Part shown: piece after piece, positions 3,221 to 20,562 of the stretch
How the letters are laid out: the number at the start of each line of letters is the position of its first letter
How positions within the stretch are numbered: position 1 is the first letter of the stretch
Assembly (NCBI GenBank): GCA_000432255.1
Contig: HF989913.1
Span: 76,755 to 140,754, forward strand
DNA: 64,000 nucleotides
Direction of reading: 5' to 3'
DNA from: Acholeplasma sp. CAG:878
Lineage (GTDB): Bacteria > Bacillota_I > Bacilli_A > RF39 > UBA660
Position numbers and translations under genes: made by a program
Notes under the pieces: model-generated
What the model saw: the letters and a program-made list of their open reading frames with translations, nothing else
Databases searched by the model: none
What the model was told of the DNA's origin: nothing

Positions 3221-4483
3221 ATGCTTAAAACATTTAAACAAATCTTTAGTCCAAAAAACAAAGATATTCAAAAGCGCATTTTATTCACTCTAGGGTGCTT
3301 AATTATATTTATCGTTGGTCAAGCAATAATAGTTCCAGGAATTAATAAAGATGCATTAGGTACAAATACATTAGGTTTCTTTCAATTAATGAACTTAATG
3401 GGTGGAGGAAGCTTAGAGAGATTTTCAATTTTCGCTTTAGGTGTTATGCCATACATTACTGCATCAATTATTATTCAAATTCTATCAATGGATATTATTC
3501 CATATTTGACAGAATTAACTAAACAAGGTGGAACTGGTAGAGCGCAAATTAATAAAATTACAAGATATACTGGTATTGCTTTAGCATTTATTCAAGGTTA
3601 CGTATATTCATTTGCTTATCTAGGAAATGGAGGAAGTCTAATTAATCTTGATTATATGCAATTTGCTTTAGTTTTAACTGCTGGTACCTCTCTATTATTA
3701 TGGATAGGTGACCAAATGACAGCTAAAGGAATTGGTAATGGAATATCAATGATAATCATGGCTGGAATTATTGCTAATTTACCTACAATGTTTACAACTG
3801 CATTTAATGAAATGATTAAATCAGGAACAGTAGGTATAATTGAATTTATTCTATATGTATTAGTTTATATAGGAATAGTAATTGGAATAGTTTATGTTGA
3901 AGGAGCAGAAAGAAGAATTCAAATTCAATATGCTAATAAATCAAATAATAGTTTTGGTGGTAGACAAAATTACATTCCATTTAAACTTAATTCAGCCGGA
4001 GTAATCCCTGTAATCTTTGCTTCTACATTAGTTTCAATTCCATCATTCATAGCAGCAATTATTAAAAAAGACGCATTTACAAACTTTATTAATAAATGGA
4101 TTGTTATGAACACACCAACTGGATTTGTTTTATATATCGTTTTGATTTTCTTATTTGCATATTTTTATACATTCATGCAAATAAAACCAAAAGATACAAG
4201 TGATAATTTAAACAAAAATGGTGGGTATATACCAGGAATTAGACCGGGTGAAGACACTGAAAAATATATAAGTAAAGTATTAAGTAGAATTACAATTGTT
4301 GGAGCAACATTCCTTGCAATATTAGCAGGTACTCCTATAATATTTGGAGTAATTACAAATTTATCTAGTAATGTAACGCTTGGAGGTACAGGACTATTAA
4401 TCGTTGTTGGTGTTGCTTTAGAAACATATAAACAATTAGAAAGTCAACTACAAAGTAGAAGTTATAAAAAAGGAAGAAGATAA
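3221..4483 (+). CDS. secY: Preprotein translocase subunit SecY
   Basis: 420-aa polytopic membrane protein with conserved SecY sequence and operon position. Confidence 0.95.
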   Translation: MLKTFKQIFSPKNKDIQKRILFTLGCLIIFIVGQAIIVPGINKDALGTNTLGFFQLMNLMGGGSLERFSIFALGVMPYITASIIIQILSMDIIPYLTELTKQGGTGRAQINKITRYTGIALAFIQGYVYSFAYLGNGGSLINLDYMQFALVLTAGTSLLLWIGDQMTAKGIGNGISMIIMAGIIANLPTMFTTAFNEMIKSGTVGIIEFILYVLVYIGIVIGIVYVEGAERRIQIQYANKSNNSFGGRQNYIPFKLNSAGVIPVIFASTLVSIPSFIAAIIKKDAFTNFINKWIVMNTPTGFVLYIVLIFLFAYFYTFMQIKPKDTSDNLNKNGGYIPGIRPGEDTEKYISKVLSRITIVGATFLAILAGTPIIFGVITNLSSNVTLGGTGLLIVVGVALETYKQLESQLQSRSYKKGRR

Positions 4484-5147: not shown

Positions 5148-5884
5148 TTAAAACAGAAGAAGAAATTGAACTTATGCGAATAGCAGGTAAAATTGTTGGT
5201 GATACACACAATTACTTAAAACAATTTATAAAACCTGGCATAAGAACAAAAGAATTAGATAAATTAGCTTATGATTATATACTAAGTCGTGATGCTACTC
5301 CGTCTTTTAAAGGTTATATGGGTTTTCCAGGTACAGTTTGTATATCAATTAATGATGAGGTTGTACATGGAATCCCAAGTAATCGAAAATTAAAAGAGGG
5401 CGATATAGTATCAATTGATATAGGGGCGTGTTATAAAGGATATCATGGGGATTCAGCTTGGTCTTACCCAGTTGGTAAAATAAGCAAAGAAAAAGAATAT
5501 CTTTTAAAACATACTGAAGAATCTTTATTTGAAGGATTAAAAGAAGCTAAATCTGGCAATAGAATAGGAGATATATCTCATGCTATTGAGAATCACGCTA
5601 AGAAATATCACTTAGGTGTGGTAAAAGAATTAGTAGGACATGGAATAGGTAATTGTGTTCATCAAAAGCCTGATGTTCCTAATTATGGCAAACGAGGTTG
5701 TGGAATGGAACTTAAAAGTGGTATGACAATTGCTGTTGAACCAATGTTAACACTTGGAAGTCCAAAAGTATTTATCTTAGATGATGATTGGACAATTGTA
5801 ACAGGTGATGAAAGTCCAGCCGCACATTTTGAACACACTATTCTAATTACAGATGATGGCTACGAAATTTTGACAAAGAGGTGA
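5144..5884 (+). CDS. map: Type I methionine aminopeptidase
   Basis: 246 aa, conserved metal-ligand context ([17 protein letters not shown]-rich); overlaps adk stop. Confidence 0.93.
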
Positions 5885-5888
5885 TATA

Positions 5889-6104
5889 ATGGCTAAGGAT
5901 GATATAATAGAAGTTGAAGGAAAAGTATTAGAAATTATTCCTGGAGGCGACTTTATCGTCGAATTAGAAAACAAACATACTGTAGTTGCTCGCGTTTCTG
6001 GTAAAATCCGAATGAACATGATTCGCATCTTACCAGGTGATACAGTAGTTTTGGAAATCTCTTCGTATGACCTAAAACGTGGGCGAATCATTTATCGAAA
6101 ATGA
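5889..6104 (+). CDS. infA: Translation initiation factor IF-1
   Basis: 71-aa S1-like fold with highly conserved IF-1 sequence. Confidence 0.95.
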
Positions 6105-6130
6105 ACCTAATTATATAGGAGGGAAATTTT

Positions 6131-14346: not shown

Positions 14347-15999
14347 ATGAACGAAAACCAAATTAATTTACAAAACAATGGAACAAAACAAAAAAAATCA
14401 AAGAAAGGGTATATAATAATTCCTATTTTGGTTATTTTATTGGCATTATCCACTTTATTTATAATTAAAAATCTAAATAAAGAAAAAGAAATTGATAGTG
14501 AAATAACTTCAGAAATAAAAAAATCAGCATATCGAATTAATAGTAATTCTTTAGAAAAATTTGATTTATATTTTTTACAATTAGAAAATGGAAAACAAAA
14601 TAAAATTTATAGTCCACTTTCTATAAAATATGCGTTAGAAATGCTTGAAGAAGGAACTACTGGAGAATCTAAGGCTCAAATATCAAATATTATTGGTAGT
14701 TATAAAGCAAATAAATATGTTAATAGTAAGAATATGGCTTTTGGAAATGCGATTTTTATAAATGAATTTTATAAAGATTCTATAAAAAATGAATATGCTA
14801 GTAATTTAAAAAATAAATATAATGCTGCTGTTATAACAACACCTTTCGACTCACCAAATGAAGTAAATTCATGGATAAGCAATAATACATTAGGTTTGAT
14901 TAATAATCTTTATAATGATATATCACAAAATAACTTTTTACTTCTAAATGCTTTAGCAATTGATATGGAATGGGAAGAAAATTTCATACCACAAACAGGC
15001 GAAGTAGAATTTGCGATATACAACCACGAAAACTTTTACTGGTCTGGTGGGGATGAACTTATTCCTAAGAATTTTAAAGATATGGATGAAGAAGTATCAA
15101 CAATGGAAATAATTGCTTCATTTAATAACTATGACATTGTAAAAGAATTAGGCAAAGAAAATATTCGAAAAAAAGTTAAAGAAGAATATTTAAAATATTT
15201 AGAAGACGGCGGTTATATTGAACTTTATGAATATGAAATTTATTTAGGAGAAAAAATAAATGGCTTAAGCGAAGAAGAGATAAAAGAAAAATATTTAGAC
15301 GAATATATAGAAAAATTTCTAGATAAATATATCGAAGATATAGATTCTAATTATAAGAGGGTAGATAAAATAACAGATTTTTCGCTTTATGTAGATGATG
15401 ATGTAAAAGTATTCGCTAAGGATTTAAAAAAATATAATGGTTCACAACTTCAATATGTAGCAATTATGCCAACTAATGAAGATTTAGATAATTATATAAG
15501 TAAGGTAAAAGTTGAAACAATAAATAAATATATCGAAAATTTGAAAAAATTAAAAGCAGATAATTTTAAAGAAGGGGTTGTCACAAAAATAAGCGGATTT
15601 ATTCCTAAATTTAAGTTTGAATATCAATTAGATTTAATGAATGACTTGAAAAAATTAGGAATTACAAATGTTTTTGAAGAAGGTAAGGCAAACTTAGAAA
15701 ATATTTCATCAGATAAATCTTTATATATTAATGGTGCAACTCATAAAGCTAATATTGAATTTACTCAAGATGGAATAAAAGCAGCAGCAGTAACGGAATT
15801 CGGTGCAGGTGGTGCAGGTGCGCCATTTGATTACTTATTTGATGTGCCTGTTGAAGAAATCGATTTAACATTTGATAAACCTTATATGTTTATTATAAGA
15901 GATTTAAACTCTGGTGAAGTTTGGTTTACAGGAACAGTTTATAATCCATTGTTATATTCTTTAGATACAACTAATCCAATTCCTGGTGCTAGTAGATAA
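14347..15999 (+). CDS. Serpin-family serine protease inhibitor, N-terminally membrane-anchored (550 aa)
   Basis: Hinge-like GIKAAAVTEF and serpin C-terminal signature FDKPYMFIIRD; an N-terminal hydrophobic segment and a Lys/Glu-rich insertion make it ~150 aa longer than typical serpins. Confidence 0.85.
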   Translation: MNENQINLQNNGTKQKKSKKGYIIIPILVILLALSTLFIIKNLNKEKEIDSEITSEIKKSAYRINSNSLEKFDLYFLQLENGKQNKIYSPLSIKYALEMLEEGTTGESKAQISNIIGSYKANKYVNSKNMAFGNAIFINEFYKDSIKNEYASNLKNKYNAAVITTPFDSPNEVNSWISNNTLGLINNLYNDISQNNFLLLNALAIDMEWEENFIPQTGEVEFAIYNHENFYWSGGDELIPKNFKDMDEEVSTMEIIASFNNYDIVKELGKENIRKKVKEEYLKYLEDGGYIELYEYEIYLGEKINGLSEEEIKEKYLDEYIEKFLDKYIEDIDSNYKRVDKITDFSLYVDDDVKVFAKDLKKYNGSQLQYVAIMPTNEDLDNYISKVKVETINKYIENLKKLKADNFKEGVVTKISGFIPKFKFEYQLDLMNDLKKLGITNVFEEGKANLENISSDKSLYINGATHKANIEFTQDGIKAAAVTEFGAGGAGAPFDYLFDVPVEEIDLTFDKPYMFIIRDLNSGEVWFTGTVYNPLLYSLDTTNPIPGASR

Positions 16000-16062
16000 T
16001 TGTTTAAAATAGTATTAAAAGCGTGAATTCTAAGTAAAGTCACAATTAAGTGCATTACAACC

Positions 16063-16098
16063 AAAAATGTGTATTTTCATAAGAAAATGCACATTTTT
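16063..16098. other. 16-bp inverted repeat (1 mismatch), spacer 4: serpin terminator and/or operator
   Basis: AAAAATGTGTATTTTC ataa GAAAATGCACATTTTT, 64 nt after the serpin stop. Confidence 0.45.
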
Positions 16099-16270
16099 AA
16101 ATCATTTTAATCTTTTGCATGATAAATCTAGATTAATGCTTAAAGATATTATGTATTTAAAATTTATTGTACATTAATTGTGTACTTTCAATAAAAATTT
16201 TAGGTAAAATATTGAGAAATTTGTCAAAATATGGTAAAATGTCTACATATAATAGACGGGAGATATAAAC

Positions 16271-16975
16271 ATGATAAACTTCATATTAGTTGATGATGAT
16301 CAGAAGTTTGTAGAAATAGTAAAGGCTCTTATTAATGATAAGATGCTTAAAACAAAATTTGATTATAAAATACATACATTTTATGATTATGATAAAAAAT
16401 TTTTTGATGGTGTAGGAAAAATCAAAAATAATAAAATATATATTTTAGATATTGAAACAAAATCCGCTTCTGGAATAGATGTAGCAAGAAAAATTCGTGA
16501 TAAAGATGTTGATAGCGTTATTATCTTTGTAACATCACATAATGAATTAGGTTCTGAAATAGTAAAAGAACAATTGATGTTCTTAACATTCATTTGTAAA
16601 TTTACTAATTTTGAAATTAACCTACAAAATGCAATTACAAAATCACTAGAAATATTAAATCACAAAACAACAATCAGATTTACTGATACCTCTGTTGTTT
16701 ATACAATTCCAATTAAAGATATATTGTATGTTACTAGAGATAGTATCGATAGAAAGTGTATAATTAAAACAGATTATGGAGAATATAGAGTCGGAAAAAC
16801 ATTAGCTGATATAAAAGAAATAGCTAATGGTGAATTAGTTCAGACTCATAGGGCTTGTTTGATAAATGAAGATAGAGTAAGAACATATTCGAAAAATGAT
16901 AATACAGTTAAATTTGATAATGGCGAAACCATAGACTTGATTTCAAGTAACTATTGGAAGGAGCTAGCTAAATGA
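16271..16975 (+). CDS. agrA: AgrA-like response regulator (REC + LytTR DNA-binding domain)
   Basis: N-terminal receiver (ILVDDD...); C-terminal LytTR region (TIRFTDTSVVYTIPIKDILYV...VQTHRACLIN); translationally coupled to the downstream kinase. Confidence 0.85.
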   Translation: MINFILVDDDQKFVEIVKALINDKMLKTKFDYKIHTFYDYDKKFFDGVGKIKNNKIYILDIETKSASGIDVARKIRDKDVDSVIIFVTSHNELGSEIVKEQLMFLTFICKFTNFEINLQNAITKSLEILNHKTTIRFTDTSVVYTIPIKDILYVTRDSIDRKCIIKTDYGEYRVGKTLADIKEIANGELVQTHRACLINEDRVRTYSKNDNTVKFDNGETIDLISSNYWKELAK

Positions 16976-18291
16976 TTGATATATTAACGCTAATATGCAA
17001 TAAATTTTTACTTTGTGTAGTAAATGTAGCGGCTGTTTTGTATGTTATATCAGTAATTTTAAATAAAAAAATTGATTTTAAAAATTATAAAACATATTTA
17101 ATTATATTTTGTTTAATAATATTATTAATTTTAAATTTTTTACTTGTAAATGATTTAGTCAGAATATTAATAAGTACAATTATTGTGGGATTTGCCAATT
17201 ATTTATTGTTTAACGAAAATATAAAGACAACAATAACAAGTACTCTTTTAGAACAAATAATTTCTATTTTATCAGAAATAGTTTATGCAATATCAATAAT
17301 TGTTATTTTGGGAGCAGATGGACATACAATTATAAATAAGTTTTATGGTGAAAGTTTTTCAGTTATAATTATTTCACTGATAGCAGTATTAATAGTTAAT
17401 GTAAAGCCTCTAAAAAAAATATTAGCTAAATTGATTGAGTTGTCACAAAAATTGAAGTTTAATCATATAGCAATTAGTGCATTGTTATTTATTATTGTTA
17501 TTAATATATTATTAGTCGTTGTATATCACGAACTTGATATTTTATCATTGATGATATTAAATCTATTATTCATCTTTATATATGGTATTATTATTTATAA
17601 TAGTTTTTTAGATAAAAATAATATGACAAAAATGCAAGCAGAAAATAAAGCGTTATTAAACAACTTAGAAGAATATGAAAAAATGCTTGATTATCAAAGG
17701 GTAGCTAATCATGAGAATAAAAATCAACTTTTAGTAGTAAGGTCACTATTAAAAGAAAACGAAAATTCTGATGCTTTAAATTATGTGAATGAAGTACTCG
17801 ATGACAAGAAAGATGATAATGATGTTTTATTTGGACGAGCAAAAAAAATTCCTTCAGGTGGATTACAAGGAATTGTATATCAAAAAATGCTTGTTATGAA
17901 CGATAAAAATATTAAACCTATATTAGATGTTAGTAATTCAGTTAAAAAATTCAAACTTGAAAATCTTGATACCAAATTAAATTATGATATATGTAGAATA
18001 ATTGGTGTATTTTTAGATAATGCTATTGAAGAAACAGAAAAACTAGATGAAAGAGAAATTATGTTATCTATGCATGAACAAAATAATGATTTAGTTATAG
18101 AAATTTCTAATAAATTTAAAAATGTACCTGATTTAGAAAGATTAGAAGAAAAAGGATATTCAACTAAAGGCAAAGGTCATGGATATGGATTATCCTTAGT
18201 AAATGATATTGTAAATAACAATAATCAAATTATTAATGAAAAAGGAATTACTAGAAATATATTTACACAAAAGTTGATTATTAAAATGTAG
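16972..18291 (+). CDS. agrC: AgrC-like sensor histidine kinase (polytopic sensor + GHKL domain)
   Basis: ~200-aa N-terminal multi-TM sensor; HATPase region (NAIEET...; GHGYGLSLV); overlaps the regulator stop. Confidence 0.85.
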   Translation: MIDILTLICNKFLLCVVNVAAVLYVISVILNKKIDFKNYKTYLIIFCLIILLILNFLLVNDLVRILISTIIVGFANYLLFNENIKTTITSTLLEQIISILSEIVYAISIIVILGADGHTIINKFYGESFSVIIISLIAVLIVNVKPLKKILAKLIELSQKLKFNHIAISALLFIIVINILLVVVYHELDILSLMILNLLFIFIYGIIIYNSFLDKNNMTKMQAENKALLNNLEEYEKMLDYQRVANHENKNQLLVVRSLLKENENSDALNYVNEVLDDKKDDNDVLFGRAKKIPSGGLQGIVYQKMLVMNDKNIKPILDVSNSVKKFKLENLDTKLNYDICRIIGVFLDNAIEETEKLDEREIMLSMHEQNNDLVIEISNKFKNVPDLERLEEKGYSTKGKGHGYGLSLVNDIVNNNNQIINEKGITRNIFTQKLIIKM

Positions 18292-18322
18292 TTTAAAATT
18301 TTACTACATTTTTTTGTATTCA

Positions 18323-18346
18323 AAAACCCACATTTTTGTGGGTTTT
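18323..18346. terminator. Bidirectional terminator between agrC and agrD
   Basis: AAAACCCACA ttttt GTGGGTTTT, a perfect 9-10-bp stem flanked by A/T runs on both sides. Confidence 0.8.
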
Positions 18347-18372
18347 ATGATAAAATAGAATTTATTTTTTAA

Positions 18373-18492
18373 TTATTTAATTAAACTTTTTGGGCACTCT
18401 GGCTCATCAATTAAAACAACGAAGCAAGCTTGACTTCCAAGGCTAGCAACAAAAGAACCTACTGTAGCGATTAATCCCATTAAAAATGACAT
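18373..18492 (-). CDS. agrD: AgrD autoinducing-peptide precursor (39 aa; absent from ORF track)
   Basis: Hand translation of minus strand: MSFLMGLIATVGSFVASLGSQACFVVLIDEPECPKSLIK*. It has an amphipathic leader, a single Cys, then an acidic DEPExPK tail as in known AgrD propeptides; RBS AAAGGGGA 7 nt upstream; lies immediately downstream of agrB. Confidence 0.75.
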   Translation of the reverse strand: MSFLMGLIATVGSFVASLGSQACFVVLIDEPECPKSLIK

Positions 18493-18539
18493 ACTATTTT
18501 CCCCTTTCTATTCTTTATTATTTAAACATAAGCCTATAT

Positions 18540-19145
18540 TTAAACCTGATTTGCAAGATATGTCTTATAGTTATTATAAGGCAAATTAAATATTTTATAT
18601 ACCAAAGGTGAAATCATACAAGATTGAACAATTAATGATAGTATAAAACTATTTGATATAAAAGTATTATTTATAAATAAAGATGCAAATACATATATTA
18701 TGGCTACAAGCGTTGATAAAAACTTATAGACATTTCTTCTTTTTTGACTAACGATTGGTCTTTTATATGTATCGGCAGGAGCATTTTTAAAGAACAATAA
18801 TATTAATATAATTCCTGCAATTATTTTTAACCATATTGGAATTGTAACTGATTTTGCTAAATAAGGAACTCCAATAAATATAATACTTGAACTTAATAAG
18901 CAAATCCAACTTTTAGTAGCGTGTAATCCAAATGATGGCATCCGTATAAAGTTATATATAAGTAAGAATATTAATACCTCTTTAATTATTCCAAATAATA
19001 TAGATAATATAATAATAATTATGAGTTTACTAATTAACATATATATGCCTTCTAAACCATATTTAATCTCTGCTAATTTTATTTCGTCATAATCACCATT
19101 ATTTCTTAATAAATTGATACATTTATTTACAACATAATTCTTCAT
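18540..19145 (-). CDS. agrB: AgrB-like membrane endopeptidase (AgrD processing/export)
   Basis: 201-aa polytopic membrane protein with conserved His/Cys pair spaced 7 residues apart (FGLHATKSWIC), as in S. aureus AgrB H77/C84. Confidence 0.8.
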   Translation of the reverse strand: MKNYVVNKCINLLRNNGDYDEIKLAEIKYGLEGIYMLISKLIIIIILSILFGIIKEVLIFLLIYNFIRMPSFGLHATKSWICLLSSSIIFIGVPYLAKSVTIPIWLKIIAGIILILLFFKNAPADTYKRPIVSQKRRNVYKFLSTLVAIIYVFASLFINNTFISNSFILSLIVQSCMISPLVYKIFNLPYNNYKTYLANQV

Positions 19146-19264
19146 ATTTTTATTCCTCTGTTTCTAATGATACACCAAAAGCAAACAAAAAAACCATTAA
19201 CTTGTCCTAATTGTACGTTTTTGTGTCCGAAAACACAAAAAAATAAAAAAAAACAACAAAAAAA

Positions 19265-19298
19265 GTCATTTCAGACAAAAAATCGACTATTTCAGACA
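19265..19298. promoter_or_regulatory. LytTR-box-like direct repeat (two ATTTCAGACA units, 22-bp centre-to-centre) in the agrB-cspA intergenic region
   Basis: tcATTTCAGACAaaaaatcgactATTTCAGACAta; on the + strand it is followed by TTAACA, then 18 nt, then TGgTAAAAT (~19302-19335). Confidence 0.4.
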
Positions 19299-19455
19299 TA
19301 ATTTTAACAAATTTAGTTCAAAACTGGTAAAATGATAATTGCCTTTTGGTACTAGTAAAGAATGTCAAAATTTGATATATTAAAATTCTTGAAGTGGTTA
19401 GACAAATGCGTTATACTAGTATTGTAAGAGAATTACTAGAAGGGAGATTTCGGCA

Positions 19456-19668
19456 ATGCGTGGTAAAGTAAAATGGTTCAATAACGAAAAAGGTTATGGG
19501 TTCATTGAATACCGAGAAGGCGAGGATATCTTTGTACATTATTCTTCAATCTTATCTGAAGGATATAAAACACTAGTTGAAGGTCAATACGTTGAGTTTG
19601 AACTAGTGCGTACAGATAAAGGTTTACAAGCCAAAAATGTAGTAGAAATTAAAACTGCCTTAGTTTAG
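19456..19668 (+). CDS. cspA: Cold-shock protein (CspA family)
   Basis: 70 aa; RNP motifs [12 protein letters not shown] and VFVHYS. Confidence 0.9.
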
Positions 19669-19679
19669 GCGTTTTTTTT
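19656..19679 (+). terminator. Weak hairpin plus T8 after csp
   Basis: GCCTtagtttAGGC followed by gTTTTTTTT. Confidence 0.5.
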
Positions 19680-19722
19680 CGCTATTTTTTAAAATTTATA
19701 GTATAATATTGTTGGTGATAGT

Positions 19723-20562
19723 ATGCAAGTAAGAAGTGTGATTTCAGTAATTTTATCATTTTTAATATTTATTTTTATAGGAACTTTTGTATTTATAAAA
19801 GTAGCTAAAAATGTAATAAATTATGAAAATATCGAAAATTATATTGAAAATATTGATGTTTTGGATATAAGAATAAAAAATTTAAATAATTTATTTGGTT
19901 TAAAAATTAAAACAAATGACAATACATTAGGCGATTATATTAAAACCCTTGGTATATATAATGGTTTAACTGAAGAGGAAATTAACCTTATATTGAACGA
20001 TGAAAAATTTGAAAAAAATTTAAAACAACTGATACTTAATTGGTACAAAGAGAGTATGAACACGAATAATACTTATGTTTATAATCCATTAACTAAGTTA
20101 GATATTAACAAAGATTTTATTGATGATATTGGAAATATATTTAAAAACCAAAATAATATAATAACCTCTATTGAAAATATTAATGTCATATTTATTATAG
20201 GAATAATATTGTTTTTAACAGTTTTAACAGGTTTTATTACAAAAACTATATATTATCCATTAATAACATTAGGTATTCCATCATTGATTATTGGAATTGT
20301 TTATACTATGTTGAAATATAATAAAGATTTATTTGCAAATTCTATTAAAACTTTACTACCACTTAGTGACAATTTAACTAATTTAGTACTAGAAAGTGCT
20401 TTAAAATCAAATATAGGAACAATTTTAATAACAATAGGATTAGTTCTTATAATTATATTTACTATAGTAAAACTACACATTAATAAAATGCTTAGAAAAC
20501 TTGAACAAACAAGAAGAATTAATATAGAAGATATTGATATGGATAATATAAAGTATAATTAA
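19723..20562 (+). CDS. Hypothetical membrane protein (279 aa)
   Basis: N-terminal TM plus two central hydrophobic segments; no motif recognised. Confidence 0.55.
   Translation: MQVRSVISVILSFLIFIFIGTFVFIKVAKNVINYENIENYIENIDVLDIRIKNLNNLFGLKIKTNDNTLGDYIKTLGIYNGLTEEEINLILNDEKFEKNLKQLILNWYKESMNTNNTYVYNPLTKLDINKDFIDDIGNIFKNQNNIITSIENINVIFIIGIILFLTVLTGFITKTIYYPLITLGIPSLIIGIVYTMLKYNKDLFANSIKTLLPLSDNLTNLVLESALKSNIGTILITIGLVLIIIFTIVKLHINKMLRKLEQTRRINIEDIDMDNIKYN

Follow-up and report, generated by a model that had tools for sequence, protein, structure and literature searches.

Among described agr systems, that of Clostridium acetobutylicum has agrBD and agrCA in separate operons, no RNAIII, and an adjacent protein gene as its Agr-controlled effector; its autoinducing peptide (AIP), R6T0, is predicted to have a six-membered ring with no exocyclic tail, and the AIPs of its relatives are also predicted to be six-membered (PMC10301443). 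Rc-AIP1 of Ruminiclostridium cellulolyticum, composed of Cys followed by WFWSY, is a homodetic cyclopeptide with no N-terminal extension, formed when the thiolactone made by AgrB rearranges to a lactam (PMC8251862). The divergent P2 and P3 promoters of Staphylococcus aureus contain a 9-bp motif recognised by AgrA (PMC11039898), and in C. difficile R20291 the agr2 genes lie in the order agrA, agrC, agrD, agrB and are treated as one co-directional polar unit (PMC4453554). AIPs from the human microbiome have been mined, synthesised and shown to alter gut communities (PMC11953309, a 2025 survey). Here, a locus at positions 16271–19145 of a 64-kb stretch of DNA from Acholeplasma sp. CAG:878 (contig HF989913.1; the whole 64-kb stretch is referred to below as the window) was analysed and compared with these systems. 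We put the probability that it is a complete and functional agr-type peptide quorum-sensing system at about 0.8. It is a new, so far uncharacterised agr system of an already known type, and its peptide gene had been automatically annotated beforehand.

A sequence-only reading of the window had proposed a complete agr-type locus in which agrBD converges on agrAC, and both family hidden Markov model (HMM) scores and 86 related loci agree with that proposal. All four open reading frames (ORFs) are present at the coordinates and on the strands given there: the agrA-like and agrC-like ORFs overlap by 4 nucleotides (nt), and agrD lies downstream of agrB on the same strand after a gap of 47 nt. AgrB matched PF04647 at 118.7 bits (cutoff 23) across profile positions 2–184 of 185, and the NCBIfam model NF002210 at 125 bits; a comparison with PDB sequences gave no match. 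The motif FGLHATKSWIC, which had been picked out from the sequence as a His/Cys motif, holds H75 and C82, each at least 97% conserved in 81 homologues. The catalytic pair of S. aureus AgrB, H77/C84, is seven residues apart. For AgrC, the Pfam domain HATPase_c_5 (GHKL type; PF14501) scored 55.8 bits (cutoff 22). Its sensor is polytopic (approximately residues 1–200), with six to seven hydrophobic segments found by hydropathy in residues 1–185, and its kinase core shows H247 in the H-box, an N-box near residue 349 and a G-box near residue 400. AgrA carries LytTR (48 bits, cutoff 22.6) and Response_reg (30.5 bits, cutoff 30.2) by Pfam, and its closest relative with a solved structure is ComE (4cbv). 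AgrD was recognised at 30.9 bits (cutoff 19) by TIGR04223 of NCBIfam, named 'AgrD family cyclic lactone autoinducer peptide'. NCBI records of Acholeplasma sp. CAG:878 contain AgrB, AgrC and AgrA proteins identical to those of the window.

Several results weigh against this identification. The top NCBIfam match of AgrA is indeed AgrA, at 31.5 bits against an equivalog cutoff of 400, as for a distant family member; the staphylococcal AgrC model of NCBIfam spans the kinase from end to end, at 69.3 bits against a cutoff of 500; AgrD falls below the narrow staphylococcal Pfam model PF05931 (12.6 against 22.7); and the host is uncultured. AgrA, AgrC and AgrD, with scores under the equivalog or Pfam cutoffs, are distant members relative to the staphylococcal families. 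All the defining sequence features of an agr system are present, with AgrA and AgrC scoring below the thresholds for staphylococcal orthologues.

A scan of species-representative genomes with AgrB returned 80 related loci, at 50–85% identity. All 80 lie in metagenome-assembled genomes (MAGs), from human, goat, rabbit, chicken and pig guts, and the relatives are labelled uncultured Bacilli, Tenericutes, Mycoplasmatota or Candidatus Faecisoma (Mycoplasmatota incertae sedis in NCBI). The host is an uncultured human gut bacterium, Mollicutes-like, with a genome of about 1.3 Mb: the largest contig with the exact AgrD measures 1.31 Mb, and one relative, L041, is a circular chromosome of 1.26 Mb. Wherever a contig extends far enough, the same module was found, in which a cold-shock-domain gene, csp, is read away from agrB–agrD, and agrB–agrD in turn runs towards agrA–agrC; convergence of the two operons is thus a trait that the lineage has conserved and no peculiarity of the window's genome. 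That the five genes have stayed together in 80 species-level genomes, even where AgrB identity is as low as 50%, points to purifying selection acting on the system as a whole. Other MAGs that carry the module (L001, L019, L022, L023, L040, L045, L079 and others) are labelled Muribaculaceae, Erysipelotrichaceae or Actinomycetes; since the module is common to all and the sequence is low in GC, these labels look wrong, or the contigs mis-binned. A literature search on agr with RF39 or Tenericutes found nothing relevant.

The spacer between agrB and csp contains two opposed repeat pairs built on the motif TTTCAGACA (consensus TTTyArACA) with a 12-bp spacer and a 21-bp period; pair A faces csp and pair B faces agrB. 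The 10-mer ATTTCAGACA occurs exactly twice in the window, 21 bp apart, both times in this spacer. Paired 9-bp repeats with a 12-bp spacer are a hallmark of LytTR regulators. A strand-aware scan was carried out on 78 agrB–csp spacers, for which the shuffled background was 10.5% per strand and without positional preference. Pair A was found in 45 of the 78, with 41 of those sites lying 113–145 nt from the agrB ATG, and pair B in 22, of which 19 end 41–72 nt from the same codon; the pairs remain anchored to agrB even where the spacer reaches 570 bp. A position weight matrix (PWM) made from the csp-facing sites was also run on both strands of the whole window, whereby pair A ranked first (31.5 bits) and pair B second (17.7 bits); the remaining matches were at shuffle level, and no other AgrA-box pairs were seen in the rest of the window. 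A −10-like hexamer stands at an offset of 29–30 after the proximal repeat in 32 of 43 loci on the csp side and 13 of 19 on the agrB side, any other offset accounting for at most 6 loci, and TGnTAnAAT is kept across loci in the csp-facing promoter.

Two features of these data count against AgrA sites. At the chosen threshold pair B, and to a lesser degree pair A, goes undetected in many loci, either because the motif has drifted in many lineages or because the consensus is too narrow; and, as the consensus was derived from the same loci, the score of pair A is partly circular, a circularity from which the rank of pair B and the −10 offsets are free. Based on the LytTR-type repeats, their position, the −10 geometry and the 9-bp motif of S. 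aureus AgrA, the spacer is read as a P2/P3-like divergent control region to which AgrA would bind. The sequence-only reading had named 19150–19400 as a region worth testing, and it is here that the two conserved repeat pairs lie. Pair A had been considered as the operator of agrBD, with the promoter ATGACT-18-TATTTT; this candidate was dropped because the strand-aware analysis shows the agrB-facing pair B, with matching −10 geometry on both sides. A further motif, (A)ATGTCGAAWTTTG (AATGTCAAAATTTG in the window), lies at approximately 19362–19377, past the csp-facing promoter and ahead of the proximal csp promoter; it is conserved upstream of csp in many loci, is doubled in some (e.g. L026, L042 and L062), and resembles an AgrA half-site minus one base.

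The gene that the divergent promoter would serve is csp, which divergently adjoins agrB in all 79 informative loci; a transcript from the csp-facing promoter would run 115 nt before the csp start. Two csp genes are present in 15 loci, and in 14 of these the agr-proximal copy stands directly behind the pair-A promoter. These 14 copies are 62–70% identical to the Csp of the window and start 215–220 nt from the agrB ATG, with a short leader. Because of the csp linkage and these paralogues, the cold-shock-domain protein appears to be the best candidate for an output encoded in the locus, and the chance that it is the direct output of the system is judged to be about even. A search of 15900–19800 against Rfam returned no RNAIII, csp-leader or other family at E ≤ 1, and the degree of structure in the csp 5′ leader is unremarkable (z = −0.53).

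The alternative that survives best is that the repeat pairs are not AgrA sites, or that only the agrB-facing one is, with csp standing beside agrB by synteny and the true regulon located elsewhere. Part of the csp linkage is indeed inherited synteny, since 48 of 76 loci also keep an HPF-like gene on the far side of csp; csp also possesses a proximal promoter-like site of its own (TTGAAG-17-TATACT), many loci fall below the repeat threshold, and in many bacteria cold-shock genes belong to the highly expressed housekeeping genes. On these grounds the alternative deserves weight, but we consider it unlikely. Both pairs share one motif, one period and one distance to the −10 hexamer, which is hard to explain without a single regulator for both, and the better conserved of the two, a perfect repeat in the window, is the one that faces csp. 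Synteny does not readily account for a dedicated, short-leadered csp paralogue after that promoter in 14 of 15 two-csp loci, nor for a csp–agrB link that survives at least four different outer contexts, the genes beyond agrA falling into many groups. An AgrA-controlled csp stays the favoured candidate output. The gene beyond csp is mostly ribosome-hibernation-factor-like (…KINIRGSKIKITDAMKEYVQNKVGKLDKYL…; e.g. positions 3864–4418 of L002), giving a recurrent hpf-csp-agr neighbourhood; the window instead has a gene for a 279-aa membrane protein at this place (19723–20562).

AgrD consists of a hydrophobic leader (residues 1–22, ending GSQA), a predicted core, C23–I28 (CFVVLI), and an acidic follower with Pro, D29–K39 (DEPECPKSLIK). 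This three-part layout had been recognised in the sequence-only reading and is borne out by the HMM match and by the related loci, every one of which encodes AgrD where there is sequence downstream of agrB; the five-residue core, CFVVL, given in the same reading is less likely than a core of six residues. The same reading had counted a single Cys and had called the gene unannotated and its product a new AIP sequence. There are two cysteines, C23 and C33, the second lying in DEPECP. NCBI lists the same 39 residues as CCY28113.1 and MBS5777900.1, under the correct name 'cyclic lactone autoinducer peptide [Acholeplasma sp.]', and they were found on 334 contigs; novelty was thus overstated, and the gene is unannotated only in the ORF track from which that reading was made. 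No paper was found in a literature search for the tail motif DEPECP. The second Cys is mostly conserved, with T or M in its place in some relatives, and since it is replaceable, C23 is the predicted cyclisation residue.

Aligned on this Cys, the AgrD peptides are near-invariant at G−4, S−3, A−1, C0, D+6, E+7, P+11 and K+16, the last residue, and positions +1 to +5 carry 2.3–3.1 bits of entropy each and are almost all hydrophobic. Among 72 peptides, 66 distinct ring sequences were found, and in all 72 five residues separate the Cys (Ser in L040) from D-E. This fixed span of five hypervariable residues makes it likely that the ring comprises six residues, CFVVLI. The staphylococcal follower, DE(V/P/A)(E/K)VP(K/A)EL, starts right after the ring. 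DEPECPKSL matches it position for position and at the same length, and by this homology AgrB should cut before D29, which would give a six-residue macrocycle. Before the Cys, S-Q-A is invariant and fits a small-x-small peptidase site, which suggests that the leader is cut directly at the Cys, between A22 and C23. Ring size and leader cleavage site are both predictions from alignment, which counts against them, and a tail-less or homodetic product is proposed more tentatively, at somewhat less than even odds.

A five-residue thiolactone, CFVVL, of canonical type, in which (SQ)A or the like would form a short exocyclic tail and I28 would fall in the cleaved follower, is improbable by comparison. 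Such rings are by far the commonest among characterised AIPs (PMC10301443), but six-membered, tail-less AIPs are documented as well (PMC10301443, PMC8251862). Composition alone leaves the boundary unfixed, position +5 of AgrD being hydrophobic like +4; what speaks against a ring that closes at +4 is that hypervariability reaches +5 and that invariance begins sharply at D+6 in every peptide of the alignment. It is also the six-residue boundary that yields a follower of staphylococcal length, and GSQA before the Cys is invariant, whereas the exocyclic tails of staphylococcal AIPs are variable. Three peptides are unusual. In L040 (5611–5721) the ring Cys is replaced by Ser (GSEASLVVIFDEEETPKSLIK), which predicts a lactone; in L019 (5268–5384) agrD ends right after the Cys (…GSQACFT and stop), as a pseudogene or through an assembly error; and P0007 (ENA, 57 aa), a member of the AgrD cluster, reads through the stop codon (…KSLIKFYFIIKPTKMWVFEYKKM), as a stop-loss variant or through a sequencing error.

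Allelic variation was compared within the AgrD cluster formed at 90% identity. Four rings were found, CFVVLI (window), CYVILI, CFAILI and CYLVLI, with identical leader and follower. The first three occur at the same site within the window's species, making at least three alleles, and CYLVLI is carried by a close relative, L001, whose flanks are 70–97% identical to the window. The six contigs with CYVILI or CFAILI have the exact synteny of the window, from the serpin gene through the ABC transporter. A sliding comparison with the window gave 97–100% nucleotide identity in the same-species contigs except in two patches, namely the sensor half of agrC and the ring codons of agrD. In the sensor patch (about 17000–17600) identity is 56–63% for CYVILI strains and 77–82% for CFAILI strains; identity between pherotypes is almost complete (97–100%) in the flanks, in agrA (99–100%), in the half of agrC that encodes the kinase, and in agrB, the spacer and csp. 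Ring alleles that are each paired with a divergent AgrC sensor have the appearance of agr specificity groups, and the co-variation of ring and sensor implies that several pherotypes exist within one species under selection on signal recognition. One same-species CYVILI strain, L083, has a 303-aa gene with HTH_38, HTH_7 and HTH_3 (5202–6113) between agrD and agrC; this gene, possibly an insertion-sequence transposase, keeps the two converging operons apart.

That the locus is a decaying or silent remnant, for which one could cite the frequent loss of regulatory systems in small-genome host-dependent bacteria, the truncated agrD of L019 and the interrupting gene of L083, is very unlikely given four intact ORFs with catalytic and phosphorelay motifs kept, a module that persists over 80 species-level genomes, an exact AgrD on hundreds of contigs, and a co-variation of ring and sensor that implies selection on recognition. 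Equally unlikely is a peptide made mainly for interference or antagonism between strains in place of self-signalling: pherotype polymorphism is a classic substrate of cross-inhibition in staphylococci (PMC10482373), but interference and self-signalling can coexist.

From what was observed, namely which genes are present, the families they belong to, how they are conserved, the geometry of repeats and promoters and the structure of the alleles, we infer the following cleavage sites, signal chemistry, AgrA binding and csp regulation for a working agr circuit. AgrB, through H75 and C82, would recognise the follower DEPECPKSLIK, cleave before D29 and join the carbonyl of I28 to the thiol of C23, giving the six-residue macrocycle CFVVLI. 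Once the leader had been removed at the Cys, the product would be a thiolactone without a tail, and an S-to-N acyl shift, as shown for clostridial AIPs, may then turn it into a homodetic cyclic hexapeptide. The polytopic sensor of AgrC would detect this peptide, with AgrC then phosphorylating AgrA, and phosphorylated AgrA would bind both opposed repeat pairs in the agrB–csp spacer. From pair B it would activate agrBD, in positive feedback, and from pair A the divergent promoter reading into csp. Expression of agrAC would come from its own, apparently constitutive promoter, with the two operons converging on shared hairpin terminators.

Two hairpins lie where the operons meet. A perfect hairpin between them, put forward in the sequence-only reading as a bidirectional terminator, was found at 18323–18346: with an A-run and a T-run on either side, it folds on both strands (z = −4.1 and −4.0) and is a putative bidirectional intrinsic terminator common to the converging operons. 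The consensus terminator scan gave no call at this hairpin; as explicit folding shows the hairpin to be real, the miss looks like a limitation of the scan. In the other hairpin, at 18283–18312, the 5′ arm is formed by the last agrC codons and the stop codon, so that the 3′ end of agrC would be constrained both as protein (…KM and stop) and as terminator stem. A AAAATGTAG…CTACATTTT hairpin with the same arrangement was found again in many related loci, and nearly all of them have a palindromic hairpin, of A-run, stem and T-run, separating the two converging stop codons.

At the other end of agrAC, the PWM scan found no AgrA-type repeat pair upstream of agrA, and for this reason the agrAC promoter is probably not autoinduced. 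Immediately upstream of agrA lies a gene for a 550-aa serpin-family protein with an N-terminal hydrophobic anchor (14347–15999, + strand), assigned through the Pfam Serpin family in the called genes of same-species loci; its length varies within the species (523 against 550 aa). It is followed at 16063–16098 by a 16-bp near-perfect inverted repeat, AAAAATGTGTATTTTC/GAAAATGCACATTTTT, flagged as terminator-like by the scan, which would insulate the agrAC promoter against transcription from upstream. The serpin gene is not kept beside agr in other species, and no AgrA-type repeat pair was found near it. The positions of all features of the locus are collected in Table 1.

Table 1. Features of the agr-type locus and its flanks, in window coordinates
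Feature	Position	Strand	Basis
Candidate sigma-70 promoter of the agrA–agrC operon, TTGAGA-17-TAAAAT with upstream TG	16212–16240	+	Consensus scan, 10/12 matches
agrA-like response regulator (REC + LytTR, 234 aa)	16271–16975	+	Pfam, NCBIfam
agrC-like sensor histidine kinase (439 aa)	16972–18291	+	Pfam, hydropathy, motifs
Hypervariable AgrC-sensor segment, putative receptor-side pherotype determinant	17000–17600	+	Sliding nucleotide identity
First hairpin, stem AAAATGTAG/CTACATTTT, then T-run	18283–18312		Sequence
Second hairpin, perfect 10-bp stem AAAACCCACA/TGTGGGTTTT, 4-nt loop	18323–18346	both	Folding
agrD, 39-aa autoinducing-peptide precursor	18373–18492	−	TIGR04223, NCBI name
agrB, membrane cysteine protease/cyclase (201 aa)	18540–19145	−	PF04647, NF002210
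−10 box TATCAT of the putative autoinduced agrBD promoter	19167–19172	−	Offset of 30 nt from the proximal repeat of pair B
Repeat pair B facing agrB, TTTCGGACA-N12-ATTAGGACA	19203–19232	−	Putative AgrA site, P2-like
Repeat pair A facing csp, TTTCAGACA-N12-TTTCAGACA, perfect repeat	19269–19298	+	Putative AgrA site, P3-like
Divergent promoter towards csp, TTAACA-18-TGgTAAAAT	19304–19333	+	Consensus scan, 10/12 matches with TG
Proximal promoter-like site of csp, TTGAAG-17-TATACT	19389–19417	+	Consensus scan
csp, 70-aa cold-shock-domain protein	19456–19668	+	CSD Pfam in called genes

Beyond the identification itself, the analysis adds pherotypes in a gut species that is uncultured, a frame fixed at six residues for the predicted signals, and a spacer with dual, putative AgrA boxes facing csp as well as agrB. 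The exact peptide is present in hundreds of public gut assemblies. A full peptide quorum-sensing circuit kept in genomes of about 1.3 Mb suggests that cell–cell signalling matters to the bacteria that hold it. Within-species pherotypes imply recognition or interference at the level of strains in the human gut; such interference shapes staphylococcal competition, and here it would take place in a commensal that nobody can grow yet. The predicted six-residue signals are simple to synthesise and could be used as probes or on enrichment cultures. If the csp link is true, the locus would be a compact model for the passage from a quorum signal to a post-transcriptional response without RNAIII. The full combination, namely an AgrA-dependent P3-like promoter driving a CspA-family RNA chaperone in the place of RNAIII, together with coexisting, mutually exclusive cyclic-hexapeptide (possibly homodetic) pherotypes in one prevalent human gut species, is put forward as a tentative picture that we hold at rather less than an even chance.

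As in S. aureus, AgrB has its His and Cys at i and i+7, AgrD is in three parts with a DE..P..L follower, the kinase is of AgrC type and the regulator REC-LytTR, two divergent promoters (here putative) have a regulator site each, as at P2/P3, and alleles within the species couple an AIP to an AgrC sensor. The locus differs in having two convergent operons where S. aureus has a single agrBDCA operon, a ring predicted at six residues against five, invariant residues before the Cys against a variable tail, and a repeat motif of TTTyArACA against ACAGTTAAG; AgrA and AgrC score below the equivalog HMM cutoffs, no RNAIII was found by Rfam in 15900–19800, and the divergent promoter faces csp. The variable region also leaves out agrB and, because of the convergent layout, is split into two patches, the 5′ half of agrC and the ring codons of agrD.

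The chromosomal gene order, A-C-D-B, is that of C. difficile agr2, but agrD–agrB here lies on the opposite strand and converges on agrA–agrC; agr2 had been considered as a precedent for a convergent locus and was dropped, being treated as one polar unit, agrA2-C2-D2-B2 (PMC4453554). With Rc-AIP1 of R. cellulolyticum, the predicted signal would share a free N-terminal Cys, to which the invariant SQA before the Cys points, whereas the ring is CFVVLI against CWFWSY, and both product and leader cleavage at the Cys are deduced here from sequence. The closest functional analogue appears to be the C. acetobutylicum type, a two-operon system that lacks RNAIII and has a predicted six-membered ring without a tail. 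Like it, the present locus has agrBD and agrAC in separate operons, a predicted six-membered ring, no known RNAIII-like effector and a candidate protein effector next door. In the window the operons converge and the order is agrA–agrC. Unlike the LanM-like effector downstream of agrCA in that species, the candidate effector here is a 70-aa cold-shock protein divergent from agrB, its regulation is predicted from the spacer, and its host belongs to a Mollicutes-like gut lineage and not to Clostridium.

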